In this document: piece by piece, positions 2,739-33,364 of the stretch
Position numbering within the stretch: position 1 is the first letter of the stretch
Layout: the number at the start of each line of letters is the position of its first letter
Source: Anaerolineae bacterium
Lineage (GTDB): Bacteria; Chloroflexota; Anaerolineae; 4572-78; J111
DNA length: 64,000 bases
Assembly: GCA_020433805.1 (NCBI GenBank)
Contig: JAGRBZ010000007.1
Location: 249 to 64,248 of the forward strand
Reading direction: 5' to 3'
Notes under the pieces: model-generated
Database searches by the model: none
Told to the model about the DNA's origin: nothing
The model's input: only the letters and a program-made list of their open reading frames with translations
Translations under genes and position numbers: made by a program

Positions 2739-2753
2739 TTAAAGCTATGTGAG

Positions 2754-2826: not shown

Positions 2827-2886
2827 AATTGAGTACCGATTAATATATTATAACGTCTATCAACCGATTTGGCAAAATTAACCAAA

Positions 2887-2957: not shown

Positions 2958-2967
2958 CTATTTAAGG

Positions 2968-3040
2968 TGCCGAGGCCCAGACTTGAACTGGGGACCCTTT
3001 GATTTTCAGTCAAATGCTCTACCAACTGAGCTACCTCGGC
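2968..3040 (-). tRNA. tRNA-Phe (anticodon GAA)
   Basis: Reverse complement GCCGAGGTAGCTCAGTTGGTAGAGCATTTGACTGAAAATCAAAGGGTCCCCAGTTCAAGTCTGGGCCTCGGCA is a canonical 73-nt cloverleaf with anticodon loop CTGAAAA. Confidence 0.95.
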
Positions 3041-3099
3041 ATAAATAGTTTTAATTAAAACTAAAAGCTTTTTTGTTGCCAACTATATTCAATTTTAAC

Positions 3100-3133
3100 G
3101 ACCGGTAGTATAACATATTGCCTACTACCGGTC
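3100..3133 (-). terminator. Perfect 11-bp hairpin downstream of the integrase stop (possible terminator or protein-binding palindrome)
   Basis: gaccggtagta-taacatattgcc-tactaccggtc. There is no clear U-tract on either strand. Confidence 0.3.
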
Positions 3134-3189
3134 AAATTCTACCCCATTTGCTCCGATTAACCGGCATTAATTATGCTGTTCTTTTGCTC

Positions 3190-16600: not shown

Positions 16601-16823
16601 CCACCAAGCTGAAGCCAGCCGTTTTAGACTGGCGACGTTCCGAGGCGAGTTTGCCAGCGGGCCAGAGGCGGCGATGCAGGTTGCGGTTGAGAAGGCCTGG
16701 GAAGCGGTGCGGGGGGCTCGAACTGGCCACTTTACACCCCAGCCGCCGGCTGGTGGCTGCCCCACTTACTGCCCGGCCGCGAGCTTTTGCTGGCACTATC
16801 ACCCGGCCTGGGGAGGACGCTGA
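13641..16823 (+). CDS. addB: AddB/RexB-like helicase-nuclease subunit (PD-(D/E)xK nuclease with Fe-S Cys cluster)
   Basis: N-terminal Walker A APAGAGKT. C-terminal SASRLEDYRTCPFLFF, DRID...LIDYKTG nuclease core and GGCPTYCPAASFCWH (1 + 3 Cys layout as in AddB). AGGAGA Shine-Dalgarno. Confidence 0.85.
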   Translation: MSIHLYLAPAGAGKTDYLIEQARQVVGDLSTTVRVCVPSGLQAQVWKRRLAAAGGALGVRVQLFYELYMECLDAVGQPYIELSEPVQYRLLQATVDSLPLTYYRSLKRRPGFISLLQNLTGELKAGRIDPDLLSAAITQLGNENRLAELAQIYAAYQTQLQARHWTDRPGLGWLAVEALANRPTLPTFTDSVLWVDGFDNFTPMQIDFLKEIAQQTQQLVITLTGAGRPTRPLVHRRFEQTRAQLEAALHVSAEPLPVRPRRCHPVLAHLEAQLFKSSQDSVLGVEVVSLIEAPDRVGEVRSALRWLKKRLIMDGLSPGQVALLARSITPYRPFISQVGVEFGLPLHLMEGQPLRSNPAVAALLNLLRLMLPASATDPRPALPYPLVLEAWRSPYFDWAARPTLEAEEPIGIEAGDAALLANVARQGQVLAGQRQWLEAFEPLTRRDQAAQEVGLPDAATAHKLQTIFERFIRRLTPPEAAVSLRDFAGWLEDLIGADPQFALRFSQPDPAAPISLKVIDRIRAELTTAARDLAALQQLKEILRGLVWAETAITPNQSMTFSQFFDELAGAIEASSYLLPYDPAEEAILVADVVQARGVPFQAVAVLGLAEGEFPTRLSEDPLLRDSDRFRLNQLGIPLRPSTESAEIEFFYETIARPWDQLLLTRPRLADNGAPWQASPYWEEVIKLVKVTPLPLTQERLPRPDEVASWPELMESLGRYAGYAVVKQWIAETNPVRQTAVAAAAQTMAQRLAQATGSLFDGNLHAATADLANEYGPTRIWSASRLEDYRTCPFLFFVRHLLGVEPRGEPEEGLDARQLGRIYHDTFEKLYQSVLDPTDLEELLEALPEIGGAILDKAPEKEGFRATAWWSQTRQTILDNVQRSLIKLAELAGDFEPLAYEQRFFEPDMPLTLRDGDDYFQLHGVIDRIDQGPDKTLRLIDYKTGGSYGYDEAAIREGKKLQLPLYALAAQEALELGQAVDGFYWHIHQAEASRFRLATFRGEFASGPEAAMQVAVEKAWEAVRGARTGHFTPQPPAGGCPTYCPAASFCWHYHPAWGGR

Positions 16824-19800
16824 TGGTGTTTCACCCTATCGTGCAGCAGTTATCGCCTAGTGAAGAACAAACCCCGGCTATTCTGGCTCGCAACCAGGAA
16901 GTGGTAGTCACCGCCGGCGCCGGAACCGGCAAAACCCGGACGCTGGTAGCCCGCTATCTGGCCTTGCTCAGCGAGGGAACGGGGCTGCGCAGCATTGTGG
17001 CTATTACGTTTACCCAAAAGGCGGCCCGGGAAATGCGCAATCGCCTGCGGGATGCCATTCGCGAATATCTGGACCGAACTGACTTATCCGAGGACGAGCG
17101 GGGCTTATGGCAAGCGCATTACAGCACGCTCGATGCGGCCCGGGTCAGCACCATCCACAGCCTGTGTGCCGAAATCTTGCGCGCTCATCCCGCTGAGGCT
17201 GGCCTTGATCCTCGCTTTGAAGTACTGGAGGAAGGGCTGACCAACGTCTTGCGAGAACAGGTCATTGCCGAAAGCCTGACCTGGGCGGCCAATCAGCCGG
17301 AGGTAGTCTCGCTGTTTGGGCTACTGGGCGAGGCGGTGTTGCGCCGCACCCTGGCGGTGCTATTAAACCGGCGGCTTGAAACCAGCGCGATTTTTGCCAC
17401 GATGCCGGATAACCTCATCGAACATTGGCACCAGCACCTGAGCCAGACTCAGGCCCAGGTGTTGGCCGTATTGACCAGCAGCACAGCCTGGCAGGCCAAC
17501 CTCGAAACCCTACGACAAAACGAACCAACGAATTCAGCCGACAAATTAGAAGCCCATCGCCAGACGGCGTTAGCCGTGGCGGCTAACCCGACCGGCTTGC
17601 TGGCCCATCTGGACACCATTAAGCTGAATGTTGGCAGTCAGAAAAACTGGCCAGGCGGGGCGGAACAGGTGGCTGAGGTTAAAGCAGCCTTGAAAACCAT
17701 CCGTGAGCTGTGGAAGAAAGAAAAACAATTCTTATTATTGGCCTTGAATGAATTGGACGAGACAGCAGCCGACGCCTTGCCCCGGTTGCGCCGGTTGTTT
17801 CAGTACGGCCATGATCGTTTCATTGCCCTGAAAGAAGCTCAAAACAGCCTTGATTTTGACGATCTCGAGGATAAGACCTTGCGCCTGTTACGTGACCAGG
17901 AAACGGTCCGCCAGCGTTGGCAGCGCGACATCCAGGCCATTCTGGTCGACGAGTTTCAGGACACCAATGACCGCCAGCGAGACTTGGTGGCATTGCTCAA
18001 TGGCGACCAGGGCAAATTGTTCATTGTTGGTGATGCCAAACAATCGATCTATCGCTTTCGCGGCGCTGATGTCAGCGTTTTTCGAGCCGAACGAGACGAG
18101 ATAGTGGCCCGGGGCGGGCAACACGTTCCGCTTGAAACGTCGTATCGGGCCCACAGCGATTTGATTGAGGGCATGAATGAATTGTTGGCCCCGGTGCTGG
18201 GTCGCGCTGCCGACCCGACACGCCCCTGGCTTGAGCCGTTTTCGGCGCTAGAGCCGCATCGCCAAGTAGCCGGCCAGGGCTTCACGGCGCCGCATATCGA
18301 GCTCCATCTCACGGTCGGTAGCAAAAGCGACGGTGCTCTGGACCACGCCGCCAGCGTGTTGGTCAATCGCCTGATCGAACTCGTTGAAGCAGAGGAAATC
18401 TACACCGGTGTAGGTGATAAGGCTCGCCGACTGGATTACGGCCATGTCGCCATCCTGTGCCGCTCATCCACTTCCTTCGCAGCCTATGAGGATGCGCTGG
18501 AAGCAGCCGGCATTCCGTTTTTAACGGTGGCCGGGCGGGGCTTTTATGAGCGGCCGGAAATTCGGGATTTGCTCAATGCCTTGCAAGCCATTGCCGACCC
18601 GACCGACGACTTGGCCCTGGTGGGGCTGCTCCGCTCACCGGCTTTCTCCCTCTCTGATGAAGGGCTGTATCGCCTCCACCAGGCTCGAACCCAGACATCA
18701 AGCTCATTTTGGGAAACCCTCACCTCAAGCGCACTCCATCTGTCTGAGACAGAAAAGCTGCGCCTTGATCGGACCAGGCCCATCATTGACAGGCTGCACC
18801 GCCAGGTGGGCCGTATGCCGGTCGCGGATATTCTGAAGCAATTTCTGGATGAGACGGATTACCGCGCCGCTTTGATCCAAATTGGCCAGCAGCGCAGCGC
18901 CCGCAATGTTAGCAAGTTGCTGGCCGATGCCAACACCGCGGAGTTAGTCAGCGTCAATGAGTTTCTAGCTTATATTAATAACTTGCGTGACAGTGGTAGT
19001 CGTGAAGGTGAAGCCCGGACTCCGGCTGAAGGGGCAGTGCAATTGTTGACTATTCACGCTGCCAAAGGGTTGGAATTTCCGGTCGTGGCCCTGGGCGATG
19101 TTAGTTACAAACCTCCAACCTGGCAAGAAATTCTAATTGACCCCGAATTGAGCCTCTTGATCCCTCATCGGGATGAGGAGAAAAATATAGCGGCCAGTTA
19201 TCTACTGGGCAATCGTACAGACAGCGAGCAGGAGGAGGCCGAATTCAAGCGCCTGCTATATGTGGCCGTTACCCGGGCCGAAGAAAAGGTGCTGTTGAGT
19301 GGAGCCATTAGCTTGAATAAGGACAATAAACTTAAGCGGGCCAGCGGCTGGTTGGCGCTGCTAGCCGAAACCGACAATCTGGGGTTGGGGGATCTGACCA
19401 TTGAACATAATGAGACCGGTGACAAAGCCATTGAATTGACATTAAGCGTGGGACAGAGTCCGGTGAGGTGCACCAATTACGAGCCGGGCTACAGTTTCAC
19501 GCAATCTGGTCGTATCGCCACGGTTGAGCCGGAGATATTGGCTCCGGTGCCGCCGCCTTTGCTCGATCCTGTGACTGTGTCAAAAGCACCGCTTCCGGCT
19601 GAGCGACTACCGCGTATCGCCCGAGTCGTTTCGTCGGCGGTACGCCGGCGTGCGCCGGCCTGGGTGGTGGGGGATTTAACGCACAAAGCCCTGGCGACCT
19701 GGCGTTTTGGCGAGGATGGCTTCGAGGTTTGGCTGGCAGCCCAGGCCCGCAATTATGGTCTGACGGATAATGAGCAGGTCACCGATGCTGTTCAAAAAGC

Positions 19801-20164
19801 GCAGCAAATGTTAGGGCGGTTCCAAAGCCACGAATTGTACCACAGGATGAACAGCGCCGAGCGCTGTCTGCACGAGGTTCCTTATAGTCTGCCCGTGGAC
19901 GGCGCCGTGGAGTCAGGCAGAATGGATGCCTTGTTTCTTCAGGACGATACGTGGCACGTGGTTGAATTCAAAACTGATGCTGTGCGTGACGAGTCTGAAC
20001 GAGAGAGGGTGCTGGCCCAAACCGATTATCTGGCCCAGGTTCAGCGTTACCGGCAGGTAATTGAGGTCATGCTGGGCCAGAAGCCGAAAATCATTTTCTG
20101 CTGGCTCAACTATGCCGGTCGGGTTGAGGTGCGGACTGATTTACGTAGTAAAACAGAAGCTTGA
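16823..20164 (+). CDS. addA: AddA/UvrD-like helicase-nuclease subunit
   Basis: TAGAGTGKT, ITFTQKAAREMRNR, ILVDEFQDTN, FIVGDAKQSIYRFRGA, TIHAAKGLEFPVV, LLYVAVTRAEEKV. C-terminal RecB-type nuclease GRMDALF...HVVEFKTD. Start set at ATG 16823 (TGATG overlap with the addB stop, GGGAGGA Shine-Dalgarno), not the ORF-track start 16787. Confidence 0.9.
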   Translation: MVFHPIVQQLSPSEEQTPAILARNQEVVVTAGAGTGKTRTLVARYLALLSEGTGLRSIVAITFTQKAAREMRNRLRDAIREYLDRTDLSEDERGLWQAHYSTLDAARVSTIHSLCAEILRAHPAEAGLDPRFEVLEEGLTNVLREQVIAESLTWAANQPEVVSLFGLLGEAVLRRTLAVLLNRRLETSAIFATMPDNLIEHWHQHLSQTQAQVLAVLTSSTAWQANLETLRQNEPTNSADKLEAHRQTALAVAANPTGLLAHLDTIKLNVGSQKNWPGGAEQVAEVKAALKTIRELWKKEKQFLLLALNELDETAADALPRLRRLFQYGHDRFIALKEAQNSLDFDDLEDKTLRLLRDQETVRQRWQRDIQAILVDEFQDTNDRQRDLVALLNGDQGKLFIVGDAKQSIYRFRGADVSVFRAERDEIVARGGQHVPLETSYRAHSDLIEGMNELLAPVLGRAADPTRPWLEPFSALEPHRQVAGQGFTAPHIELHLTVGSKSDGALDHAASVLVNRLIELVEAEEIYTGVGDKARRLDYGHVAILCRSSTSFAAYEDALEAAGIPFLTVAGRGFYERPEIRDLLNALQAIADPTDDLALVGLLRSPAFSLSDEGLYRLHQARTQTSSSFWETLTSSALHLSETEKLRLDRTRPIIDRLHRQVGRMPVADILKQFLDETDYRAALIQIGQQRSARNVSKLLADANTAELVSVNEFLAYINNLRDSGSREGEARTPAEGAVQLLTIHAAKGLEFPVVALGDVSYKPPTWQEILIDPELSLLIPHRDEEKNIAASYLLGNRTDSEQEEAEFKRLLYVAVTRAEEKVLLSGAISLNKDNKLKRASGWLALLAETDNLGLGDLTIEHNETGDKAIELTLSVGQSPVRCTNYEPGYSFTQSGRIATVEPEILAPVPPPLLDPVTVSKAPLPAERLPRIARVVSSAVRRRAPAWVVGDLTHKALATWRFGEDGFEVWLAAQARNYGLTDNEQVTDAVQKAQQMLGRFQSHELYHRMNSAERCLHEVPYSLPVDGAVESGRMDALFLQDDTWHVVEFKTDAVRDESERERVLAQTDYLAQVQRYRQVIEVMLGQKPKIIFCWLNYAGRVEVRTDLRSKTEA

Positions 20165-20425
20165 TCCTATAATAAAACTATAACATTTCCTTTGACTGAT
20201 CAGGGTGAAATCACGTAACTTAAATCTCCTACCTAATTGTGAACTATTTTAACCTAACCCAGCCTAATTCCCTGTCCGGCGAATAATCAGATTGATGTGC
20301 ACTTCTAGCGTAAACCAACTAACCTGACGTCATTGAGAAATTAACCTAAGCCTGCTACCATCTATAGTGTACTTTGTTTTTTGAGTACGGCCTCTTGAAT
20401 GGATACCAAAGAAACTGTTTGAGTT

Positions 20426-23400
20426 ATGTCGAAATTCAGAACATTACGAAATAGAGATGCTTCGAGCACTGTTCGGGGATATGTCTATCAAGTTGATCTT
20501 ACAATCGAAAAGTGGTTAAAGTTACAGCCTGAAGAAATTCTTGAACTTGAATGTGGAGAAGATATAGATCTTATTTCACCCTTGCTTACTGTTATTCCTG
20601 AAGAAGAGCAACGACTGCTTGAACAAATCAAGCAGCGAGAGAGGCCAATCACATTACGAAGTGATGAAGCAATTGAAGCGCTTGCTAATTTCTTGGAGCA
20701 TCGCAAGAGCAATCCTAGCATAGAGCTTATTTTTCAGTATACAACCAGTGCTAAAATAGGCAAGGAACAAAAATCACCAATGACAGATAAAATGGCTGCT
20801 ATTGTTGCCTGGGAAAATATTCGTACAGGCATCTGGCGTAATCCAGATGATCCCAAATTTAAGAAGGCGCTGGATGGTATTTGGAGAATTTTGCACACAA
20901 AGCAAAAGCCTCAAAGCGTACCCCAGAAAACTTGGCAAATCTTTAGAGACTTCCTCGAGGAGTCTGATAGGGAAAAGTTGCTTGAAGTAATCCGCAAATT
21001 TATCTGGAACACAAACACTCGTCCTGCCAGTGATATGAGGCTACGTATTCAACAATTACTTGTGGACAATCGATATGCTAGCAGTGAAACCGAAGCCGAA
21101 GCACAGTATCCAAGACTATTTCTATACATATTCAAGCTGCTCTCTAAGAGCGATGAAAAACAACTCACGGTAAAAAACAGGGAAGAGCAATTAGCTTTGC
21201 CCTGGTTGGACAACAATACTCAAGAATTGTTAGACACACTCATGGCAAAACTCGTGAATGTAACCACCGTTGAGCAATTGTTCAGCAACAACCCTGCCTA
21301 TGAGAATATTGAAACGTTATATGTCCCTCCCCTGGAATTTGAGACAATCAAATCTGTACTTCAAGAAAAGAATATGGTTTGTATTGTGGGCGAGCCACAT
21401 ATGGGTAAGACCTTCACGGCCGTATATCTCTTGTTGTCCTATTATCGTCAGGGCTATCACATCCATTTAATGGGGAACGATAATAGAATATCTATTGCCG
21501 GGCGTTATTCCTGGTCAGATTACGACAAAGATGACCTCAGAAAGTTTATCCAACCTGGTCAAATCACTTATATAGACGACCCATATGGTGCGACGGAAGA
21601 AGACTTCAAATATGCTCAAGAGAGATTTGATTTAAAAATACTTCTGGACGCAGTTCAGTCCAATGATAATGATCATCAACCGCCTAAACTTATCGTCACA
21701 ATGCGAAGGTCGGTTTTTGAACGAGTTGTGCAAGATACCCCACAGATAAGACAGCTTATACTCGATATTTACAAAGGCACTTCCTATGATGAGGAAAGCC
21801 GTCGCATCGTTTTAAGTAGATATATCAATTTCCTTGAACCAAAGTGGGCTTCGGACAACCCGATAATGCAAACAGTCCTTGAAACCGCGCCTAATAAATT
21901 GGTTGCTCCGCACAATATTTATTGGTTTGTTGACCACTCTAAAGATCACGAAAAATTAAATGATGTGTTATTGGCAATGAAAAACGCTAAGGAAATTGTC
22001 CCAGCATTAGCAAGTGAGATAAATCATCTTTCATCAGAGCTTGATCAACTTGTATTTGTAACCATGTATATTACTGATTTCAAACCTGGCTTTCAACGTT
22101 TCCCTCACATGGGCTTGCCTGGCCGTAACTGTTTTAATCACTATCAGATTTTTGCCGAAGCATTAGGTCATAATGACCCTGAAAAAGTTCTCCAGAGATT
22201 TAAAGCTACTTTAGCAAATTGGTCGGCTGTATTTATGGCAATTGGGTTGAAGAGCATTGGAACCGAGTCTCAACATATCGCCGGTGCTGTTTTCCAACAT
22301 CCTTCATTTGCAGAAGCAACGGCTCAATTTATTGAGAAAAGCAAGACCAAAGGTGTTTTTGCAGAATTATGTCTTCAATTCCAAAAGCTCATTTTTGATG
22401 CACAAACTTATGATTCAGCGATGATGTTGGTTCACCCATTGTTTAGACACTTTGAATGTTTACGGCCTGCTGTGTTAGACCAAACTCAAGAGTCATTTAG
22501 AACCGGCGAAAAGTTTGCCCAAAGGACGATTGTTGAAGCATTATTGGCAAATTATCATCAACTCCCGAGCCAACTTCAGCCATTTTTTGATGAGCTGGAC
22601 CCTGAAAACGATAAAGAGATCTGGTATATGTTTATGAAGGCTGCTTGGCCGAATCCTAATCTATTAGTTGAACAAAGAATAGAACTCTGGCGACGGGCGC
22701 TGATTGGAGGCGTTGTATATCCGCCTAATCCACTTTCCTCTAATCTGATGGACGGACCATTTTTGTACTATAGACGGTTGCCAAGCGAATTGCAGAAAAT
22801 CATCCTCGCTTATTTTGAGTTACGCAATCAATATGGCTGGTATTGTGTAGCTTATGCTCTTCTTAATAATTACAATTATCTCCCAGAAGAACTCCAAGAA
22901 TGGTTTCCAATATTGGCATCTGAGGGGGATGAGTACGTAGTTTACCAAATTATGTCAGCTTTGAGGAGTAATTATGAGGGTTTGCCTACTGAAGTTCAAG
23001 CTCTGGTAGTAGATTTCGGAACTGATGAAAATTGGAAATATCGTGCTTATATTGCTCAAATGTTTTGGCATAAAACTGAAACTTTACGATCTGATCATGC
23101 TAAACTTGTAATAGATCTAGCATTACAGGACCAAGACAGCCGTGTCCGTTTGTCAGTCGTCTACAGCCGACTTGTCTTAGCAAGTCTACAGAAAATAGAG
23201 GAGATGGATTCGGCGTATCCCTCAAAAATCTTTAATAGTTTGTTTTACTCTGAGTATCCTGAAGATAAGGCCGGCGTTCTTTTCTCAATATTCGATACAG
23301 CTAGATTCTGGAATGGTTCGAGGGAAGCAGAAGTTTATCGGCGACGATTTGCTGATTTGGTGGCAAGTACGGAACCAATCGTCATTGCAATGATGAGATA

Positions 23401-23542
23401 TAAATTGCAGGAAGACTACCCCTCAAGTTTACCACCACTACCACCTATCACATTACCAGAAACGGAATTGTCCCAATACAAGAGCGAGGTTGAATCGTTG
23501 ACGAGTGGATTGGTCAGCGTCAACTATGGGCCAGGCCATTAG
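20426..23542 (+). CDS. Cap4/DUF4297-like PD-(D/E)xK nuclease head + STAND-type P-loop NTPase + HEAT-like repeat tail (Avs-like antiviral NTPase candidate)
   Basis: N-terminus STVRGYVYQVDLTIEKWL...LECGEDIDLI...LEQIKQR. Walker A VGEPHMGKT (aa 321-329). Walker B ITYIDDPYG (aa 380-388). Four spaced repeats carry NY-x-x-LP-[SET]-[EQ]-[LV]-Q (aa 704-864). AT-rich relative to the flanks. Confidence 0.7.
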   Translation: MSKFRTLRNRDASSTVRGYVYQVDLTIEKWLKLQPEEILELECGEDIDLISPLLTVIPEEEQRLLEQIKQRERPITLRSDEAIEALANFLEHRKSNPSIELIFQYTTSAKIGKEQKSPMTDKMAAIVAWENIRTGIWRNPDDPKFKKALDGIWRILHTKQKPQSVPQKTWQIFRDFLEESDREKLLEVIRKFIWNTNTRPASDMRLRIQQLLVDNRYASSETEAEAQYPRLFLYIFKLLSKSDEKQLTVKNREEQLALPWLDNNTQELLDTLMAKLVNVTTVEQLFSNNPAYENIETLYVPPLEFETIKSVLQEKNMVCIVGEPHMGKTFTAVYLLLSYYRQGYHIHLMGNDNRISIAGRYSWSDYDKDDLRKFIQPGQITYIDDPYGATEEDFKYAQERFDLKILLDAVQSNDNDHQPPKLIVTMRRSVFERVVQDTPQIRQLILDIYKGTSYDEESRRIVLSRYINFLEPKWASDNPIMQTVLETAPNKLVAPHNIYWFVDHSKDHEKLNDVLLAMKNAKEIVPALASEINHLSSELDQLVFVTMYITDFKPGFQRFPHMGLPGRNCFNHYQIFAEALGHNDPEKVLQRFKATLANWSAVFMAIGLKSIGTESQHIAGAVFQHPSFAEATAQFIEKSKTKGVFAELCLQFQKLIFDAQTYDSAMMLVHPLFRHFECLRPAVLDQTQESFRTGEKFAQRTIVEALLANYHQLPSQLQPFFDELDPENDKEIWYMFMKAAWPNPNLLVEQRIELWRRALIGGVVYPPNPLSSNLMDGPFLYYRRLPSELQKIILAYFELRNQYGWYCVAYALLNNYNYLPEELQEWFPILASEGDEYVVYQIMSALRSNYEGLPTEVQALVVDFGTDENWKYRAYIAQMFWHKTETLRSDHAKLVIDLALQDQDSRVRLSVVYSRLVLASLQKIEEMDSAYPSKIFNSLFYSEYPEDKAGVLFSIFDTARFWNGSREAEVYRRRFADLVASTEPIVIAMMRYKLQEDYPSSLPPLPPITLPETELSQYKSEVESLTSGLVSVNYGPGH

Positions 23543-23752
23543 CAAATCAAAAACCAGGAAAAGGGCCAAGAATCCTGATGTGCATTTCAACTAACTCCGT
23601 GGTGTAACAATGTGTCAGCAAGCGTCGATGCATTCGATTTGTATGATGGGGTGTACAGCGGTGTTACTCAACGGATTGATGGTGATTCTTATCTAAAATT
23701 TTCGATGTCTTTAAATATTTGGAAAACTATGAAGAAATTATAGTATTTTCCT

Positions 23753-25072
23753 CTTAGTAACAGAGGGGGTAGCCATTTGCCAGTATCTAGGGAGGAAGGA
23801 CGAAATGGGCAACAAGGTCGGGATCAGGTAGAGCTGGCAAAATAGGAAAAGGAACCCCCTGGTTCAAAATATGATCTAAAAAGATAAAACCTAATTGAAC
23901 TAAACTATGATAAAAGGCATCGGTACGCACCAGACAACGAAAGATGCCCGAAAAAATGGCTTCAATGCCTAACAAAATGAGCAGATAATAAGCCACCGCG
24001 GCAGCCAACAAAAAGCGTTCCAGGCGTTCAGGCGTACGAATACGGGTCCGATCCAACTGAAAGCCCCGGCTCTTGAAATCGGCAAAACAGGTTTCAATAG
24101 TAAAGCGGTGTTCATACCACTGTTTGGCCTCTTGTTGAGTGGGACAGTTGGTCACAAAAAAGATATGGTGTTGTTCGGTCTGGTGCCAGGCAATGAAAAT
24201 ATTCAAGCCTGCAACTGGCTGCTTATGAATGAAAGGACAGTGTAGCAACAAAGCTGTATCGGTTGAGGCAAGGCCCAATTCCTGCCCGATTTCCGTCAGC
24301 GACAGCCATTTACCATCAAAATAAGCCAGATGGCTGTGACTGGTACGACAGACAAACTGCCAGTTGGTTTGTTGAGTGAGCCAGGTTAAGACCTGTGTCC
24401 CATCAAACTCAGCATCAGCCACGAACACCACTTGGCTAGCAGTTGGCACTAAAGTGGCCACATATTGTAAAAGTTCAAGTTGTTCCTGTTGAGGGGTATG
24501 TCCTTTCTTGCCTTTCAAACAATGCCAGGCAATTGGAATGGCCCGCTTTTTGTAATAGACACTGACCAGCAAACACAGACAGCGACCGCCCAATTTGGTA
24601 CTATCCATCATTAACACCAGTGGCTGGTTGGGAGCTAGGCGCTGCAACATTTGCCTGGCTAAAGGTTATAGACAGACTTGACCTGCAACCATCGGCTTTT
24701 GATAAAACGTTCAAAACGGCTGACCAGGCTGGGTGTCTTGTAGTCGTACAGGACTTTTTGGGCTATCTTGGTCAACCGTCCATCCCGACTGCGTAACAAG
24801 CCTGTGACCAACATGGCCAGGCTCAGCCGATGTTCTGCCAGCAGGTAGGGAAATTGTTGGCTCAGTTCGTCGACTATGAAACGAAACAAGCGAGCGGCAT
24901 CACTATTATTCTGTCTTTTTTTGTCGTCGTTTACGACGGCGTTGATATTTGTTACATCGGGTCTGGTATTGTTTTCGGATCGTTTGCATTTCTCAGCTCC
25001 TTCATATTTTTTAGCTGTACTTTGCTAAACTTTATCCGTTTTTGTCAATTCCTGACCCCCTACGTTACTAAG
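23753..25072 (-). mobile_element. IS4-family insertion sequence (1320 bp) with imperfect terminal inverted repeats (IRs) and 8-bp target duplication
   Basis: Ends are CTTAGTAACAGAGGGGG (23753-) and the reverse complement of CCCCCTACGTTACTAAG (-25072). ATTTTCCT flanks both sides directly (23745-23752 and 25073-25080). The transposase carries a Y-x2-R-x3-E-x6-K motif (YEHRFTIETCFADFK). Confidence 0.85.
23787..24889 (-). pseudogene. IS4-family DDE transposase, split by a 1-nt deletion
   Basis: ORFs 24659-24889 and 23787-24650 are one gene. Copy 2 reads ...VYEPLARQMLQR... continuously. This copy reads ...VYNL* and then restarts at MLQR in another frame (aacctttagcc versus gagcccttggcc). Confidence 0.75.
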
Positions 25073-25130
25073 ATTTTCCTCTTGGAGATTTTTTGAGGGC
25101 ATAGCAAACCTTTTTGCACGAAACCACTGG

Positions 25131-25374
25131 TTACAACTTGCGATCAATAACAACCAAGATTTTCATCCAGTTTGTACCATTCTCTAGTCGTTTCTGATGA
25201 TAGACTTGATATTCGGGTACTGTTCGTACGATACCAACCGCCAATAACCATAAAATCCGAGGCCTGAAACGATTGCCTTGATGGGACATTGTCTTCTGTT
25301 CTTGACAAGCCAAAGTAACTGAGGAGATGTTTAAGAGGATGAAACCGGTCGAGTGAGTCTAACTCAGCCAACAC
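25131..25374 (-). pseudogene. IS110-family transposase C-terminal remnant (frameshifted)
   Basis: Two overlapping frames give ...LDRFHPLKHLLSYFGLS... and ...GNRFRPRILWLLAVGIVRTVPEYQVYHQKRLENG...VVIDRKL, which resembles the IS110 C-terminal domain. No N-terminal part is present. Confidence 0.5.
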
Positions 25375-25544
25375 TGTGCCCAGTGACAGATAGCTACCAT
25401 AGCCTAAGTTACCATGAAAAGAGTCAAGAGAGTATCTTAGGTTAAGATAATTTTATGATTAAGATTTAGACTGGTTTCACATAGAAATAATGTTCTGATA
25501 CAATAGTTATTATTGTCCCAATAAGGTTGCAAGAGGAACCAAGT

Positions 25545-28500
25545 ATGCCGACGTTTGCTACAAGTCCGTTACCTGTACCCGAATCGTGGAAAGAGTTTGA
25601 AAAAATAGCCAGAGACATATACGCACGCCTTTGGCAAGATCCTAATGCTGAACTCAATGGACGTGACGGCCAATCGCAGCATGGCGTAGATGTTTATGGT
25701 CAACCTTGGGATTTGCAAGGTAGATATGTAGGTGTTCAATGCAAACGTTACAGAGAGACTAAACTCACCAAAACAAAGATCATAAAGGAAATTAAAAAAG
25801 CTGAACAATTCACCCCAAAGTTATTTGAGTATATTATCGTCACGACAGAGGTCAAAGATGGTGCTTTGCAAGAAATCGTTCGGGAAATAAATGTTGAACG
25901 TCTGGCAAACCAAAAGTTTCCTGTTCGTTTAGTCTTCTGGGAAGATCTATGTACCAACTATTTAGCCCATCCCGATTATCGCGATCTCCTACGTGAAATT
26001 GCTCGAAAACATTACTCGGATTGGGTAAACCTTTTTTCAGAAATAAAAGCTTTAGAAAGTTCGTCAATTTTTCAAATCAGTGTCGAGCGTGAACATAATC
26101 TTGGATCCCTCACCTTGCAAGAACGCCATCTCCAAGAACGATTGGAGGTTTTGAGAGCTGAAGCTAATAATGGCTACAAAGAAGCCATACAACCACAGGT
26201 AAGTGCATTGGTTTCAGATATGGAAAATATTGCTCAAGATGCTAACCTTGACTCGGAATTACAGGGACAGGTTTATCGGCTTGCAGCAAATGTTGTCTTA
26301 CCCAATCGTCCTGGTGGAGATACCAAGCAATGTAGAAATTATCTCTTGAAAGCACGAACATTTTCATCTTCAGGTGACGGACTTGTCAAGTGTCAGATCA
26401 TCGAAGCTTTATTGGCCTATCTAACACGTGGCTTAGACGTTGCTCTGGCAATGGTGGATGACATCGAGGGTAAAGAAGCTGACCGTTTCCGATTTAGCAT
26501 GTATTTGGAGAATAATGAATGGGCCGCTTGCACGACGTTGCTGCAAACCTATAAAGAAACCGACTTGTCCAACACGAAGGACTGGTTGCGATTGTTGGTC
26601 TTGTATTATGCAGGGGTTGGCAATCGGGTAAAGCTAGAGGAAATATCAGAACAATTGCTGGCTTCCATTAGTCATGCAGACCACTATATGATGGCCGGAT
26701 TCGCCTGGGTACGTTTGGCCTACCGACAGTACCAACATTTTTGCGAAAAACATGATGTTTGTCCCGCTTTACATATAGAACTAGCTCTGGATGAGTTAAT
26801 AGATTTTGAGGCTCGACAACAAGCCCTAGATATGTTCGCCCGAGCTTTTGAGATATATCGCGAGAAAAACTGTATTTTAACCGCGCAGCAAGCTCTACTA
26901 ACAGCAATACAATTAGCAATGGATGAGTCAGACTCCAAACGATTAGACCAGCTCCTTGAGCAGCTACAGGCACTTGATCCACAACACCCTCTCGTGATAT
27001 TGAAAAGGGATGAAATTAGGTTATCCAAACTAGCCAAACCGGAAGCTGTAACTGAGCAATTAGAGAAGTTACTCATTGATTCTGAAACTGACCTAGCCCT
27101 TGGTCTTGCCCTTGATGTGTCTCAAGAGGATGAAACTATAACCAAACAAGTTGCTTACCTGCTGGCACATCATCAGACACGTTTTGAACACGACGATATT
27201 GCTTCTGTCCAGTTTTTATACAAAGTCTTTCACTTGCATATGCAAGCAGATGCTCAGCCAGAAGCAAAAACTTGGCTAGATAGCCTATCCCCCCCAGAAC
27301 GTTATGGTCATCTACAACCACTTTTACAATTTATATTCTATATCAAACATGATCCACCCTTAGCTCCTCAATACTTAGAGCAAGCATTAGAAAAGTACCC
27401 GGAACACCCAGAAATTTTGGCGGTTGCAACAAAATATTATTGGGGGCAAGGGGATTATCAGCGACAGATTGAGTATGCCAGAAAACTATTCGCAATTCTA
27501 CCTATTGCGTCAGTTGCCATAGAAATTCTCAATGCGTTGATAGCTGCTCAGAATTATGACGTATTTTTGCAAGGTGTTAGTGAATTTGAAAGTCTATCCA
27601 TTCCTGAAGAAGCCATAAAGTCCAAGTGTGCCTACGCCCATCTTCGTTTAGGGCAGCCTCTGAACGCTTTGGAGCATCTAGAATGGTTGCATAATCAGAA
27701 TAAAGCGCGATTGGATGAATTAATAAACTTGGCTCGCATTCTTCAATATTTGGGACAATGGGGAGACGCTTTTGCTGTATTGGGTGATTGTGTCCAACTT
27801 TATCCAGAAGAACCTGAAGCATATTTAGAATTATCGCAAGCTTATTTAGACGCAGGCCAACGCGATGAGAGTTTCCAATGGGCTATGAAAGCTCGCAGTC
27901 GTTTCCGGTATAACGCGAATGTAGCAGTTCATCTTGTCCAGGTAAGCCACCTAACCGGATTTGAACATCGCTCTGACATTCAAAAAGTGTTTCAAGAATT
28001 TTCACTTGGCGGTCGTTTTGAAAGTACAGGGTATATGAGACCCGCATCACTAGAAGAAATCAGGTCAGCACTTAAGTCTCATCGGGATTTTTCTGAAAGT
28101 TTAGAGACCTCATATCGTCAAGGAAAGATATCTTCCATGATGTTATGCTATCTCCAACCAGGTTTCCCTAATGCTCTTTTCCGCTTTCATATCATCAGCA
28201 CTCAGTTTAAGCTTCCTCGATATGTGGCGGCCGGAGATCAACCCTTTGATGCGGCTTGGTTAAAAAAGAATAATCCCAAAGAGGTTGTTCTTGATTACAC
28301 GGCCATCTTGACCTTATGGTCATTGTATCGTGATGACTGGCTTGATACATTGCGTCACAATTTTCGCCAAGTCTGGGTTCCCGATAAACTCCTCCAGGCT
28401 ATGTACTCCGAGCAAAGGTTGATGAGGCAATATGGTCAACCATCACAATACAAAATACAAAGAGCCATTAGAGATGTCATCGAACAAAAACCGGGGAAAT

Positions 28501-31500
28501 TTCACATTCATTCTCAGGCCGATTCAGTAGATAGTTGGGGTGTAACGGGGATACACGCCGAAGCTCTAATTGCAGAGGAGAAAAATCTACCATACTTGAG
28601 TGAATACGACAATGATGAATTGATATCAACAACCCAAAACATAGGTTTGCGCTCCGTAGCCAGAGTCTTAAAAAAGAGTGGGGAAATCAATAATAAGACT
28701 CATCAACACTTAACCTCACAAGCTCGTCGACGTACCCGCTCAGAAAACAGATTGGTTTTACCAAAAGAAAGTGGTCTAGTAGTAGCTATGCCTGCTCTAA
28801 TTACCATTGTAAATGCTGGTGCGCTTGAGGAATTCTGTGATTATTTCGGTGAGATCCACCTCTCCCAATCTGCCTGGCAAAGAATTTTGGCCCAAATAGC
28901 AGAATTTGAGCGTACAGAAGAAATGATTCGTGAATTGCGCCACTTGCAAAGCATGTTGGGAGAAGCTGTACAGGATGGTTTTGTACAAGTTGGGGCCGCG
29001 TCGCCTGACCAAAGATTACTTTTACAGGCGGAACAAGACAAAAAAGATGACAATACACCTACCGAAGATGCTAATTCTTTAAGAGACATCAAGCAATTTT
29101 TGTCCGAATATCTTGATGACTTGCTGTGGATTGCCCATTCTCGTCAACTTTCAATTTGGGCAGATGATCGCTGGATGAGCAAATTTTATCCCAATGAGCG
29201 TAGACCAATATTTATCTTCGGCACAGACTCATTTCTAGAATGGGCACGAAGAAAGTCTTCAGATGATGATGAATATTTTGACAGATACAGTCGCATAATT
29301 GAGTGGGGATACCTAGGTCTACCATTACACCCAAACTACATTCTGTGGTTATTGAATCAAGACTTGCAACCGGAAGCCAAGATTTTTGCAGCTGCACTAT
29401 CCCTCTATCGTCAATATGTGATAGATATTTGGAATGCTTTCCGAATCACAGGAGAAATATCAGCCGAGTTCGGAACCAAACTTTTTGATCTATATAATCA
29501 GGCAATTATCTCAACGCTATTTCAATGTTTTGAGCAGGGAATTCTTTTAAAGACTTGCGCAGATATCTTTCGAGCTTTGGATTTGACTCGAAATACCTCA
29601 TTGGCGGAAGGCAATGAACCTCAATTCTTGGCAAGTCTGATAATTAGGGGTGTTAATGATGATTGCCTTGCACAATTGGATGGTGTCGAAGAATATTTAA
29701 CAAATTGGGCTCAATTTGTGAATTTCAACCGTTGGCTCGATAAAGTATTGCAAACATCCGGGGTTACGACGGAAGTAATACAGGAGGCTTGGTATGAGTT
29801 GTTGCAATCGCCTATTGCGATGTATGACAGTGCTAAAAATGAACAGGATAGGTTGATTGCTACACTTTTTTCACAAAGATTATTTGATGCAGCTCCAGAT
29901 CATGCTAAAGATTATTTGGTCAACAGCACCCTTGAGCCAACAATGCGACAAGCTTTTGGGTTTGATGCTCAATATTCTATCATTTTTACCAGTTCTGACG
30001 GCACGATACGAGCCAAAATTCCAGCCGAAGAATGGTCAAAAGACATTAACCAAGCAATTACAGAATTTGTAACCACCGAGTCCTCAGATCCTATAACTGT
30101 AGGAACTGCCACTATACAGGCCAACTGGGTAGCTTACGGATCAATATTCCTGCGATATAAAGAGTTTCCCTCAGAACTGCACAATGATCAGCCTGACGCT
30201 AAATTCCTTGACGGAGACTCCATCAGCATTCTACCGTATGCTACTTCGGAAAATATGAAAGAACGTTTAGGCTTCTGGTTTCAGGGGCTACGAAAACTAA
30301 AAAAGATGGACGGTGACTATGACGAATGGTTAATGTTATGTAACGACATCGAGTCTGAATCATCGGCGGACGTTACAGAAGCCGGACATCGACTCCAGTG
30401 TATTTTGTTTGGTCAGTTGACAATAGCGAAAGATTACCTTACTGAAGCAACGCAAATAGGGTCTCAAGCCATCTTACATGTATTAGCTCACATAGAACCT
30501 CAAGTAGTTCGGCGATGGTTAGATCTGCCCCAGTTAGATTGGGAAACCTCGGATAGCCTGACAACTTGGGCCAAGACCGGAATAGATGAGTTGTTATCAA
30601 ATGCAAACGACACCGCAAGAATTGATTTGCTCATAAACAATTATTCGAGTTTTGGATACTCAATTTTTCCGGATGCTTTGGTTTGGCAAGAGGCTATTGA
30701 TCAATCACTAGAAGATTGCAGCCTAGCAGAGTTGCGACGTGCAATTGATGATTTAGCGATTTTGAGCGAAAAAAGCCGATCGATGCCACTAAAAGCGAAC
30801 GTCCTTTTATCACTACTTCGTTTGGAACAAATAATTGATGATGCTGAGCTTGAAGCCAGTATCTCTGAACGTATCCATAAACTAACAGCCTGTATCGCAC
30901 AACCTTGGAAATCTACTGATGAGCAGGATCGATCCTATCAAAAATTAGAACAGACGCTATGTGATTACCTTTACATGGCTTGGCTCAAACAAAATAGCTC
31001 TGATCAAGATGTATTGCGAGAAATTGCATATCTCGCCTATCTGGGCGCTGCGATTATCACAGATATGTTGGCTAGTTCCGGTTTGTTGCTACTTGAATAT
31101 ATTGATGATCTAATAAGGGAGTTAACTACAGTTGCTCAAAAACGTTGGACAAAGGAAGGCATTGTGGCCCGGCAACCACACGGTATATTTAAACCAAGGT
31201 GGGGTGTAAACCTAAATTACGCTCTTGCATATTTGCTTAGGGTTAACATCCTGAACCAGCTACATTTAGGCAAACTTGCTACTAACTCAACAACTCGTCA
31301 AACATTACTTGATGCTGGTTCACTCTACCGTCTCATTCAAGCATACATTCCTAATCTTAGCCCTAAAGAAGATTGGCTTGACTCCTTACTCGTGGCAGAC
31401 ATTGGGCAAGGGATAGCTTACATCATATCAACAGCACTTGGGGACGAATTGGAGATTTGGCCAGAGGAAGAGCAAGTAAAATTCAACATCTGTAGTACGC

Positions 31501-32090
31501 CGGAAACTGGTGTTGCTATGATCGCTGAAAGGTTAAGAAATCTTCCTGCAGCCAATGAAAATGAGATTTCACATATCGTTGGTATGTCATTCGTCTCAGC
31601 GCCAACTTGGAGTGAAGAAGCCTATCAGCTTGTTGCTGTTTTATTGTATCCAGATATTCTTAATCAAATCATGCGTTTTCCAGTTGCCTATGGAGAACTT
31701 GTGGCACAGCTTATCTATTTGCTAGCAACCGATGAAACACTTTCTACCGAGCTTGCAAATCAGGCAAAAAACCTGGTATTTGGCTTGCCACCACAACTGG
31801 ATAATAGAAGCGATCTTATAGTAACACAGGCGAGGGTATTGTCAGGGGTAATCAACTTTACCCCATACACAAAAAACATAGAAACTTGGCTAAAAGATTT
31901 GACAACTGATACGGTGATAGAGACTTCTATGGTGAGACGTGGCCTAATGCCGTTTGTAAAGTCATGGCCTCATTATGAATATGAGATTAAACAAATTGTT
32001 GGAAAAGCCCTTGCTGAAATTGCAACTATCCCACGATTTTCAAATCTATGGGAACTTAAACGAATTAGCCGCGAGTTTACTCCACAATAG
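25545..32090 (+). CDS. Giant (about 2181 aa) Mrr-like PD-(D/E)xK nuclease + TPR array + PIN-like domain + long helical C-terminal region; no P-loop detected
   Basis: N-terminus HGVDVYG...YVGVQCKRY...YIIVTT (D...Q-x-K core). TPR-like helices, for example PEAYLELSQAYLDAGQRDESFQWAMKA. VVLDYTAIL...SEQ...SEYDNDEL at aa 915-1060. No GK[ST] appears anywhere. Start set at ATG 25545 after AAGAGGA. AT-rich. Confidence 0.75.
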   Translation: MPTFATSPLPVPESWKEFEKIARDIYARLWQDPNAELNGRDGQSQHGVDVYGQPWDLQGRYVGVQCKRYRETKLTKTKIIKEIKKAEQFTPKLFEYIIVTTEVKDGALQEIVREINVERLANQKFPVRLVFWEDLCTNYLAHPDYRDLLREIARKHYSDWVNLFSEIKALESSSIFQISVEREHNLGSLTLQERHLQERLEVLRAEANNGYKEAIQPQVSALVSDMENIAQDANLDSELQGQVYRLAANVVLPNRPGGDTKQCRNYLLKARTFSSSGDGLVKCQIIEALLAYLTRGLDVALAMVDDIEGKEADRFRFSMYLENNEWAACTTLLQTYKETDLSNTKDWLRLLVLYYAGVGNRVKLEEISEQLLASISHADHYMMAGFAWVRLAYRQYQHFCEKHDVCPALHIELALDELIDFEARQQALDMFARAFEIYREKNCILTAQQALLTAIQLAMDESDSKRLDQLLEQLQALDPQHPLVILKRDEIRLSKLAKPEAVTEQLEKLLIDSETDLALGLALDVSQEDETITKQVAYLLAHHQTRFEHDDIASVQFLYKVFHLHMQADAQPEAKTWLDSLSPPERYGHLQPLLQFIFYIKHDPPLAPQYLEQALEKYPEHPEILAVATKYYWGQGDYQRQIEYARKLFAILPIASVAIEILNALIAAQNYDVFLQGVSEFESLSIPEEAIKSKCAYAHLRLGQPLNALEHLEWLHNQNKARLDELINLARILQYLGQWGDAFAVLGDCVQLYPEEPEAYLELSQAYLDAGQRDESFQWAMKARSRFRYNANVAVHLVQVSHLTGFEHRSDIQKVFQEFSLGGRFESTGYMRPASLEEIRSALKSHRDFSESLETSYRQGKISSMMLCYLQPGFPNALFRFHIISTQFKLPRYVAAGDQPFDAAWLKKNNPKEVVLDYTAILTLWSLYRDDWLDTLRHNFRQVWVPDKLLQAMYSEQRLMRQYGQPSQYKIQRAIRDVIEQKPGKFHIHSQADSVDSWGVTGIHAEALIAEEKNLPYLSEYDNDELISTTQNIGLRSVARVLKKSGEINNKTHQHLTSQARRRTRSENRLVLPKESGLVVAMPALITIVNAGALEEFCDYFGEIHLSQSAWQRILAQIAEFERTEEMIRELRHLQSMLGEAVQDGFVQVGAASPDQRLLLQAEQDKKDDNTPTEDANSLRDIKQFLSEYLDDLLWIAHSRQLSIWADDRWMSKFYPNERRPIFIFGTDSFLEWARRKSSDDDEYFDRYSRIIEWGYLGLPLHPNYILWLLNQDLQPEAKIFAAALSLYRQYVIDIWNAFRITGEISAEFGTKLFDLYNQAIISTLFQCFEQGILLKTCADIFRALDLTRNTSLAEGNEPQFLASLIIRGVNDDCLAQLDGVEEYLTNWAQFVNFNRWLDKVLQTSGVTTEVIQEAWYELLQSPIAMYDSAKNEQDRLIATLFSQRLFDAAPDHAKDYLVNSTLEPTMRQAFGFDAQYSIIFTSSDGTIRAKIPAEEWSKDINQAITEFVTTESSDPITVGTATIQANWVAYGSIFLRYKEFPSELHNDQPDAKFLDGDSISILPYATSENMKERLGFWFQGLRKLKKMDGDYDEWLMLCNDIESESSADVTEAGHRLQCILFGQLTIAKDYLTEATQIGSQAILHVLAHIEPQVVRRWLDLPQLDWETSDSLTTWAKTGIDELLSNANDTARIDLLINNYSSFGYSIFPDALVWQEAIDQSLEDCSLAELRRAIDDLAILSEKSRSMPLKANVLLSLLRLEQIIDDAELEASISERIHKLTACIAQPWKSTDEQDRSYQKLEQTLCDYLYMAWLKQNSSDQDVLREIAYLAYLGAAIITDMLASSGLLLLEYIDDLIRELTTVAQKRWTKEGIVARQPHGIFKPRWGVNLNYALAYLLRVNILNQLHLGKLATNSTTRQTLLDAGSLYRLIQAYIPNLSPKEDWLDSLLVADIGQGIAYIISTALGDELEIWPEEEQVKFNICSTPETGVAMIAERLRNLPAANENEISHIVGMSFVSAPTWSEEAYQLVAVLLYPDILNQIMRFPVAYGELVAQLIYLLATDETLSTELANQAKNLVFGLPPQLDNRSDLIVTQARVLSGVINFTPYTKNIETWLKDLTTDTVIETSMVRRGLMPFVKSWPHYEYEIKQIVGKALAEIATIPRFSNLWELKRISREFTPQ

Positions 32091-32446
32091 GTGGGTAATT
32101 CTCGTGAAATTGGTAGATCATTGCCAAAACTACGTATAGGCTATGACACCGTCGTCGACCCCATTACCACTACGTTTTTAATTCTAAACCCTCGATATCA
32201 TTCGAAACAAAACCCTTGAACCAACCTTTCTCATCTAATATGCTGCTCCTGTAACCACAAAATCGACGTCTTCTAATTGCTCTTGTGCGGCCAAGTTTCT
32301 GACCATAGGTTCCAAATTACCACTTTTTTGGGTCCGTAACGCCAATATTTTTGGCCGTAAAACACAAACGAGAGGTATTGACCCAACTCGCCAGGAATGA
32401 TACGCTGACAAAAATCTCTAATGAAATTACGGGACAGGAGGCCAGC

Positions 32447-33364
32447 GTGAATATCGAGGCTTTTCTACAGTTTCTGCAGGCGGAAGATCGGGCCGAGCGG
32501 ACCATTGCCGGCTATGCGCGTGATCTGACCAAATTTCTGGCATGGTTTGAACAAACCACCGGCCGGCAACCCCAGCCGGCGATTGTCACCCCGCTAGACA
32601 TCCGCGAATATCGCCGCCATTTGCAGCAGGAAAAACGGCTCAAACCGGCCAGCGTCAATCGCCGTCTGGCCGCGCTGCGGGTCTATTTCCGCTGGGCTAC
32701 CGAAACCGGTCTCATTGCCGCCAACCCGGCGGCATCCATCAAGATGCTGCCCCAAATCGGGCAAGGTCCCCGCTGGCTGGAGCGGGACGAAGCCTACGCC
32801 CTGATCCGGGAAGCGGATGCGACCATTCGATTGGCCAAGGCTAAAGAACTGACCCCCTCAGCCAATCTGGCCACCCGCAACGCCGCGATTTTGTCGTTGT
32901 TGCTGCACGGATTGCGAGTGTCGGAAGTGTGTGCGCTACGTCTGGAAGATGTAACCATCAGGGAGCGAAGCGGCAAGGTAGTGGTTCATGCCGGCAAGGG
33001 CAACAAATACCGGGAGGTGCCGATCAATGTCGATGCCCGCCAGACCGTGTCGGCCTGGTTAAAGGTACGGCTGGATGATAACGGCATCTACCTTTTCACC
33101 GGACGGCGCGATCAACAGTTGCAACCCCGGGCCGTTCAGCGCTTTTTGGATCGGCTGGCCCGGCGGGCCGGTCTTGATCCACAGAAAGTGACGCCCCACG
33201 CCTGCCGCCATACCTTCGGCAAGAGTTTGGTCGATGCCGGCGAGTCGCTGGACCGGGTAGCGATCTTGATGGGGCATAATGACCTGTCGACGACTGCCCT
33301 TTACACCACCCCCTCGCGGACGGACCTGGCCAGTGCGGTTGAGAAAATTGCCTGGCAGGATTGA
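32447..33364 (+). CDS. XerC/XerD-like tyrosine recombinase
   Basis: LHGLRVSEV (Arg), HACRHTFG (H-x-x-R), GHNDLSTTALYT (Tyr). Start proposed at GTG 32447 (GGAGG 7 nt upstream); the longest ORF starts at 32351. Confidence 0.88.
   Translation: MNIEAFLQFLQAEDRAERTIAGYARDLTKFLAWFEQTTGRQPQPAIVTPLDIREYRRHLQQEKRLKPASVNRRLAALRVYFRWATETGLIAANPAASIKMLPQIGQGPRWLERDEAYALIREADATIRLAKAKELTPSANLATRNAAILSLLLHGLRVSEVCALRLEDVTIRERSGKVVVHAGKGNKYREVPINVDARQTVSAWLKVRLDDNGIYLFTGRRDQQLQPRAVQRFLDRLARRAGLDPQKVTPHACRHTFGKSLVDAGESLDRVAILMGHNDLSTTALYTTPSRTDLASAVEKIAWQD

Follow-up and report, generated by a model that had tools for sequence, protein, structure and literature searches.

A putative Avs-like immune receptor that joins a Cap4-type nuclease head to an nSTAND3 NTPase and a HEAT-like tail in an Anaerolineae defence island

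The window analysed here is a 64,000-nucleotide (nt) stretch of contig JAGRBZ010000007.1 from the Anaerolineae bacterium assembly GCA_020433805.1, and our subject is one gene within it, at 20426..23542 on the + strand, which encodes 1038 amino acids (aa) followed by a stop codon. We propose that its product, hereafter the target, is probably a stand-alone Avs-like immune receptor composed of three exchangeable modules: a Cap4-type nuclease head, an nSTAND3 NTPase and a HEAT-like solenoid. Its role against phages is predicted from sequence, structural models and analogy with characterised proteins. An effector, a STAND NTPase and a sensor in one stand-alone gene constitute the Avs layout in the broad sense. 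Three other readings, namely a role in conflicts other than with phages, a non-functional chimera and a two-gene system, are each less likely and are discussed where the evidence bears on them.

The open reading frame (ORF) begins with ATG and runs without an in-frame stop. The start codon is supported because homologue alignments begin at residue 1. Its product has the same sequence as NCBI MCB0190675.1, which is listed as a "hypothetical protein" in a metagenome-assembled genome (MAG) of an Anaerolineae bacterium; its protein cluster has one member, and an identical locus is carried by three independent assemblies, that of the window and two further ones. A promoter and terminator scan gave signals not above shuffle expectation. 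An initial annotation, made from the letters of the DNA, had described a single-gene candidate with a Cap4-type head, a STAND P-loop and a HEAT-like tail. Every motif that it quoted is present where it had been read: GYVYQ at aa 18–22, EDID at aa 45–48 and EQIK at aa 66–69 in the head, GEPHMGKT at aa 322–329 and ITYIDDP at aa 380–386 in the P-loop region, and the four tail repeats described below. Its description of a single-gene system also holds, as neither a CD-NTase nor another partner gene adjoins the target, and Pfam, PADLOC and NCBIfam scans of the neighbours revealed no CD-NTase, SAVED, HerA or SMC/LmuB gene nearby.

A Cap4-type nuclease head

Sequence comparison and predicted fold together assign the head (aa 1–~275; 20426..21250, + strand) to the PD-(D/E)xK nucleases of the Cap4/DUF4297/LmuA type, with an intact D46...Q67-x-K69 site and predicted catalysis. 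The PADLOC LmuA model spans aa 8–263 (E value (E) 1.3e-11) and the PADLOC DUF4297 model covers aa 8–50 (E 2.6e-8). The head is the sole region common to the target and 51 database proteins (P0002–P0052), at 29–50% identity. An alignment of 31 homologues has invariant columns at D11, G18, Q22, E42, G44, E45, D46, D48, R63, Q67 and K69, and its profile matches the DUF4297 structures 8xav (E 2.9e-7) and 9c1m (E 4e-4). Asp46 in the GEDID motif (20561..20563, + strand), the predicted catalytic aspartate, is among the residues shared by all 31 homologues and aligns with D40 of DUF4297; Q67 and K69, which flank I68 in the EQIK motif (Q67-I-K69; 20624..20632, + strand), correspond to DUF4297 Q53 and K55 by motif order and by the aligned QCK of 9c1m. 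In Escherichia coli DUF4297, the triple mutant D40A/Q53A/K55A loses both nuclease activity and defence, and the protein requires dimerisation (PMC11291478).

An AlphaFold2 model of the head, made with the homologue alignment, has a predicted local distance difference test (pLDDT) score of 89.7 and a predicted template modelling (pTM) score of 0.86, and displays an alpha-beta-beta-beta-alpha-beta core at aa ~16–107 followed by a helical subdomain. When searched against the PDB with Foldseek, the model matches LmuA (9nxx and 9hr5), HerA-DUF4297 (9c1m), the Hachiman chain 8zue_A, CBASS Cap4 (6wam, 6vm6, 6vm5 and 7yib) and the Avs3 chain 8dgc_A (E 3.7e-4); the matches span E 1e-6 to 4e-4, with template modelling (TM) scores of about 0.5. 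The LmuA model, the DUF4297 profile matches, the predicted fold and the Foldseek matches thus bear out the Cap4-type head of the initial annotation, which had named the lack of a nuclease fold at the N-terminus as a finding that would speak against it; the Foldseek comparison places a PD-(D/E)xK fold there. Neither Pfam nor Foldseek detects SIR2 in the target. A long linker helix (aa ~263–290; 21212..21295, + strand; residues 263–288 in the AlphaFold2 model) forms the junction of head and body.

An nSTAND3 NTPase with helical and winged-helix domains

Profile match and predicted structure divide aa ~292–625 into an nSTAND3 P-loop NTPase and, after it, a helical and a winged-helix domain. The Pfam model PF20720 (nSTAND3) matches the NTPase core at aa 299–468 (21320..21829, + strand) with E 1.8e-16 and 60.6 bits, against a cut-off of 27.2. 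Walker A (GEPHMGKT; 21389..21412, + strand) and Walker B (ITYIDDP; 21563..21583, + strand) are intact, and the G, K and T of the former and the D and P of the latter are invariant in the alignment of NTPase relatives, as is the column of the sensor arginine, R427, after strand 4. The helical and winged-helix domains (aa ~470–625; 21833..22300, + strand), delimited in the AlphaFold2 model, end at His625 in FQHPSF. This position is nearly invariant across 68 nSTAND3 relatives, and we take it to correspond to the MHD histidine of STAND proteins. The body model (aa 290–1038; pLDDT 87.7) comprises a P-loop core, a helical domain, a winged-helix beta-hairpin then helix, and an all-alpha solenoid; its Foldseek matches are weak, though of the kind expected, and include Cdc6/Orc1, the STAND-TPR structure 6mfv, Avs4/Avs3 (whole-chain E ~5e-3) and the HEAT solenoids CRM1, CAP-G and TNPO3.

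An exhaustive HMMER search with aa 290–1038 against 1.84 billion representatives returned 380 relatives, nearly all of which align over aa ~292–550 only. Those closest in the NTPase belong to nSTAND3 as well; their heads are of SIR2_2, Mrr_cat or trypsin type and their tails of HEAT_2 type. A neighbour-joining tree of this module, computed with no bootstrap, pairs the target with P0053, a JGI metagenome protein, within a clade of 19 leaves of which 9 are SIR2-headed. The PF20720 assignment and these SIR2-headed relatives therefore indicate that the NTPase is not a housekeeping AAA+ or ABC protein, a grouping that the initial annotation had said would undermine its STAND claim; that claim is confirmed by the family match above cut-off and the intact Walker motifs. 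A published study describes Pseudomonas Avs5 as SIR2 followed by nSTAND3 (PF20720) and TPR/Sel1/PPR repeats. Judged by sequence family, the target NTPase is of the Avs5 type at the level of the Pfam family only: no Avs5 reference sequence was found in PDB and plasmid searches, and the SIR2-nSTAND3 relative P0062 has no enterobacterial or Pseudomonas match among plasmids.

A HEAT-like tail with a family-wide repeat

The rest of the body (aa ~626–994; 22301..23407, + strand) is modelled as a HEAT-like all-alpha solenoid, the presumed sensor, and carries four degenerate 32–34-aa N[FY]xxLP repeats. The initial annotation had noted these four copies, and each is found by motif match and with a repeat hidden Markov model (HMM): ANYHQLPSQLQPFF at aa 708–721 (22547..22588), YYRRLPSELQKII at aa 781–793 (22766..22804), NNYNYLPEELQEWF at aa 814–827 (22865..22906), which is the best repeat-HMM match (i-E 4e-5), and SNYEGLPTEVQALV at aa 848–861 (22967..23008), all on the + strand. 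The spacing from LP to LP is 72, 34 and 34 residues, and none of 20,000 shuffles of the target protein contains four LPxx[LVI]Q matches. In the body model, the proline of each repeat marks the start of the second helix in a helix-turn-helix unit. The repeat HMM, built from 142 units of 21 proteins other than the target, recovers exactly the four sites that had been noted (aa 699–715, 783–794, 805–825 and 839–858), and its whole-protein E is 2.7e-9 for the target versus 0.16 or worse for controls.

The repeat is a property of the wider family. NFxxLP recurs many times in the consensus of 68 nSTAND3 relatives, and at least four N[YF]xxLP copies with a 32–34-aa period are present in 44 of 150 relatives; up to 14 copies occur, for example in P0073 and P0117, with VAWAVAYNFDKLPEKVKNLLFQLSEKDK. 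Among 51 controls from other STAND clades, none has three or more N[YF]xxLP copies. Pfam HEAT_2 matches the target weakly (E 0.15) and P0202 at 2e-4; in P0067, repeats with the same N[FY]xxLP motif match HEAT_2 at 1e-25. HEAT_2 tails are common in the nearest nSTAND3 relatives. The modelled solenoid and its Foldseek matches to HEAT solenoids uphold the HEAT-like tail of the initial annotation. Its further suggestion, of a new subtype marked out by HEAT-like sensors and this repeat, is not supported as made, both features being typical of the nSTAND3 family. The particular tail of the target is common only to P0053, P0202 (542 aa) and the fragments P0054 and P0055; a word-index search with the tail found a single protein, and the tail alignment had no match in a scan of metagenome contigs.

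A head-swapped chimera

A homologue search with the full-length target retrieved head homologues only, and the body relatives came from the separate HMMER search. Homology to the former stops at aa ~273–290, and homology to the body of P0053 begins at aa ~294. P0053 (964 aa; locus L001, 2531–5425) is the sole full-length relative of the body, with 52% identity from the NTPase through the helical and winged-helix domains to the end of the tail, and retains three of the four repeat motifs. Its head of ~205 aa is distinct from that of the target and has no Pfam match at E ≤ 10, and its more distant kin P0063, P0074 and P0118 likewise carry a different ~200-aa head that no Pfam model matches. The P0053 head has a GGD-LVVEF...CFQFKS pattern (D...FQFK), which suggests, on sequence, a different PD-(D/E)xK nuclease that no model matches. 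Conversely, the target head recurs at 40–50% identity on more than 50 STAND proteins of the NPHP3_N/AAA_16, nSTAND1 and nSTAND5 clades, mostly cyanobacterial and with filamentous cyanobacteria prominent; further carriers are found in Paenibacillus, Chloroflexia, Deinococcus and on a Sphingopyxis plasmid. Among 147 nSTAND3 relatives, none has this Cap4-type head (best head-HMM E 0.046).

A different head on the P0053 body and the recurrence of the target head on other STAND clades therefore identify the target gene, at the sequence level, as a head-swapped chimera. By these comparisons, what appears new is the combination of head and body and the rarity of the exact sensor tail. Module exchange is a documented evolutionary mode of antiviral STAND proteins, for which a census counts at least 90 defence-associated families, and Cap4 heads on antiviral STANDs have already been described in Avs3 and Avs7. 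A genome scan with a 10-sequence NTPase alignment gave 38 loci (L013–L050), none close to the target; a phage collection contained no match to it, and a plasmid search gave distant single-module matches only.

Such rarity could also mean that the gene is a recent, non-functional or decaying chimera, in which a cyanobacterial-type Cap4 head and an nSTAND3 body were joined, transferred horizontally and left without selection. The combination seen only once, as none of the 147 nSTAND3 relatives has the head and the cluster has one member, would fit this history, as would a G+C (GC) content atypical for the host, an adjoining insertion sequence (IS) element, the degenerate repeat copies and a sensor motif that usually reads TSR and reads TMR here, with the serine replaced. 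Decay is nevertheless difficult to reconcile with an intact ORF of 1038 codons, the conservation of all catalytic and nucleotide-binding residues, two confident AlphaFold2 models and an identical locus in three independent assemblies; Avs proteins, moreover, normally evolve by module shuffling. We consider a decaying gene improbable.

Comparison with known defence systems

The target resembles Avs5 in its nSTAND3 (PF20720) NTPase and in the order of effector, NTPase and helical repeats in a single polypeptide. It differs in its effector, a Cap4-type nuclease where Avs5 has a SIR2 NADase, and in its tail, which is HEAT-like with the N[FY]xxLP repeat whereas that of Avs5 is of TPR, Sel1 or PPR type. 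The link to Avs5 is drawn at the level of the shared Pfam family and of the SIR2-headed nearest NTPase relatives. Avs3 and Avs7 share with the target an N-terminal Cap4-like nuclease, a STAND NTPase and a helical-repeat sensor, but their NTPases belong to another STAND family with no sequence-level match to the target, and their TPR sensors are unrelated to its tail; the Avs3 chain is also longer, at about 2000 aa versus 1038 aa.

The head itself has the fold and the catalytic D...QxK of Cap4 from CBASS, LmuA from Lamassu and DUF4297 from HerA-DUF4297, nucleases that are activated by oligomerisation. Their control differs: Cap4 is governed by SAVED and a CD-NTase, LmuA by SMC-like LmuB/C and DUF4297 by a HerA hexamer, whereas the target head is fused to a STAND NTPase. 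We rejected assignment to CBASS, Lamassu or HerA-DUF4297 because partner genes are absent: the target has no SAVED domain and no adjacent CD-NTase, and neither LmuB/C nor HerA is encoded among the neighbours. Closer in the head are the ~1400-aa STAND-TPR proteins (P0002–P0052; Sphingopyxis WP_037555877.1) of cyanobacteria, Paenibacillus and a plasmid, which are likewise single-gene and 26–50% identical to the target head, with the same invariant residues. These proteins have NPHP3_N/AAA_16/nSTAND1/nSTAND5 NTPases and TPR-like tails, and show no similarity past aa ~290 of the target.

A low-GC insert in a defence island

The target lies in a low-GC insert of ~12 kb (20165..32350), with ~41% GC against 52–62% in the flanks, which also contains an IS4-family element and the gene for a 2187-aa TPR-GreABC-PIN protein. 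The insert was horizontally acquired; no direct repeats were found flanking it. A low-GC donor is hinted at by the cyanobacterial origin of the best head homologues. Directly upstream of the target, and with host-like GC, an AddA/UvrD-like helicase is annotated (16787–20164, + strand), preceded by an AddB-like nuclease (13641–16823, + strand) that weakly matches the PADLOC model of an Argonaute-associated Cas4-like nuclease. Before these lies a complete pPIWI-RE system on the + strand, consisting of a restriction endonuclease (6345–7496), a DinG-like protein (7500–11000) and pPIWI_RE (11007–13613). The pPIWI-RE genes and then the AddB-/AddA-like pair are on the same strand with gaps of <30 nt or overlaps, and may form one extended operon. 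A cluster of tRNA-Asp, tRNA-Gln and tRNA-Phe genes is followed directly by a phage-type integrase (cluster and integrase, window positions 2753–4278; integrase 3190–4278, − strand); the defence region as a whole (~30 kb) may be a genomic island that integrated at a tRNA gene.

Downstream of the target, the IS4-family element (~23750–25080, − strand) separates it from the gene for the giant protein. The element has imperfect terminal inverted repeats (CCCCCT..GTTACTAAGA) near 23755–23775 and 25055–25075, and its transposase is apparently split into ORFs of 287 aa (23787–24650) and 76 aa (24659–24889). The giant (25527–32090, + strand), an Mrr_cat-TPR-PIN-TPR-GreABC protein by Pfam, exceeds the typical length of the TPR-GreAB-C-PIN type (~1300 aa) by ~900 aa; TPR-GreABC-PIN proteins are a described counter-invader family. 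It has five full-length relatives only, at 31–60% identity; of the two that were looked up, one is beside a type I restriction–modification system and the other beside pP_pnuc_1 and PHP-SMC-type genes. A Xer-like recombinase, identified with NCBIfam, forms the downstream border (32351–33364). The tRNA genes and integrase, the pPIWI-RE system, the AddB/AddA-like pair, the giant and the Xer-like recombinase therefore identify the target locus as a defence island on a mobile background. The target stands alone among other defence genes, here those for pPIWI-RE and TPR-GreABC-PIN. Some loci of head homologues are likewise defence-associated: DarT-Macro adjoins the head homologue in one case, and mobile-element, toxin–antitoxin and TRADD-N genes surround it in another, while a third locus is of housekeeping character.

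The target and its giant neighbour share the insert, the strand and a GC content of about 41%, which might point to a single multi-gene system. We regard this as very unlikely: the opposite-strand IS4-family element lies between the two genes, P0053 has no such neighbour and the relatives of the giant have no nSTAND3 neighbour, and the literature describes TPR-GreABC-PIN proteins with no STAND partner gene.

A predicted mechanism and its alternatives

A mechanism for a phage-sensing role can be proposed by analogy. At rest, the NTPase would be ADP-bound and closed, with the nuclease head sequestered. The solenoid would bind a phage-encoded protein, and nucleotide exchange would then lead to oligomerisation, either as a tetramer, as in Avs3/4/7, or as a filament, the form reported for EfAvs5. 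Oligomerisation would in turn join the Cap4-type heads into active dimers or tetramers, and the active heads would degrade double-stranded DNA indiscriminately and so abort the infection. The Cap4 heads of Avs3 and Avs7 do work through tetramerisation, and EfAvs5 forms filaments.

Several results weigh against an Avs-like phage receptor. What is established is the layout of the target and the conservation of its key residues; its trigger, its state of assembly and the substrate of its nuclease are deduced from the behaviour of Avs3/Avs4/Avs7 and Avs5. The head has no match to the Pfam DUF4297/Cap4 models at E ≤ 10 and scores 29.5 bits with NCBIfam DUF4297_antiphage, far below its cut-off of 300, and in the NTPase the TMR sensor motif departs from the usual TSR. 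The PADLOC comparison that the initial annotation had recommended gave a divided answer: the LmuA and DUF4297 models match the head, but no Avs/AVAST model matches the target at E ≤ 1, and the only PADLOC match to the NTPase is a partial one of 27 bits to the candidate PDC-S73. NCBIfam likewise has no relevant Avs match. The SIR2-headed nSTAND3 relatives are also matched by no PADLOC Avs model. Finally, the 126 neighbours of 13 distant nSTAND3 relatives in 13 genomes are mostly housekeeping genes, the exceptions being one prokaryotic Argonaute, one or two methyltransferases, two EAD8 and two trypsin proteins; these loci do not demonstrate the enrichment of homologues in defence islands whose absence the initial annotation had named as a refuting result.

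These neighbourhoods, which do not clearly lie in defence islands, are one reason to consider that the target is a STAND protein of conflict or programmed cell death whose main role is not against phages. Here the same logic of sensor, switch and nuclease, as in NTP-dependent conflict systems of the Kaur/Aravind type, would respond to a trigger other than phage and act against plasmids or mobile elements, or serve as a kin-directed or altruistic death switch in filamentous multicellular bacteria. Such conflict systems have been described in the literature, and the host is represented by an Anaerolineae MAG while the head homologues are concentrated in filamentous cyanobacteria. The head homologue with mobile-element neighbours also adjoins a TRADD-N/pentapeptide gene, an association that would suit this role. 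However, the neighbours of the target itself, pPIWI-RE and TPR-GreABC-PIN, are recognised anti-invader systems, and the characterised effector-STAND-repeat proteins of the same layout are all phage sensors. A trigger other than phage is therefore unlikely in our view, though somewhat less so than decay of the gene.

If the target is active as an Avs-like receptor, SIR2 NADases would not be the only effectors under an Avs5-type (nSTAND3) switch, which could also govern a Cap4-type nuclease. The rule that heads and sensors are swapped as antiviral STANDs evolve would thereby be extended, and Chloroflexota would have a compact 1038-aa example. To our knowledge, almost no phage defence has been characterised in this phylum. 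The target belongs to a well-explored kind of system and opens no new class of mechanism. More tentatively, and with considerable doubt, the target and its four relatives could represent an as yet uncharacterised Avs family in which the rare HEAT-like sensor responds to a trigger new to Avs, such as a Chloroflexota-phage protein; more broadly, nSTAND3 proteins with N[FY]xxLP tails could form a large class of prokaryotic pattern-recognition receptors, many of them in methanogens, ANME, Bathyarchaeia and Asgard archaea. Because N[FY]xxLP recurs across the family, it offers a simple way to find nSTAND3 sensors, many of them archaeal, by sequence.

A common unannotated head among nSTAND3 relatives

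The commonest head among the nSTAND3 relatives (80 of 147; for example P0065, P0073 and P0117) is an unannotated domain of ~209 aa. It has no Pfam match at E ≤ 10, and a PDB profile search with it returned only a spurious match to a designed repeat protein. The domain has an invariant D-I-L-G-F near the N-terminus, a second invariant aspartate and a P-x-E-I motif, and at a guess its DIxGF...D sequence recalls class III nucleotidyl cyclases. Its carriers are often archaeal, and include Methanothrix, Methanoperedens, ANME-1, Bathyarchaeia and Asgard archaea.

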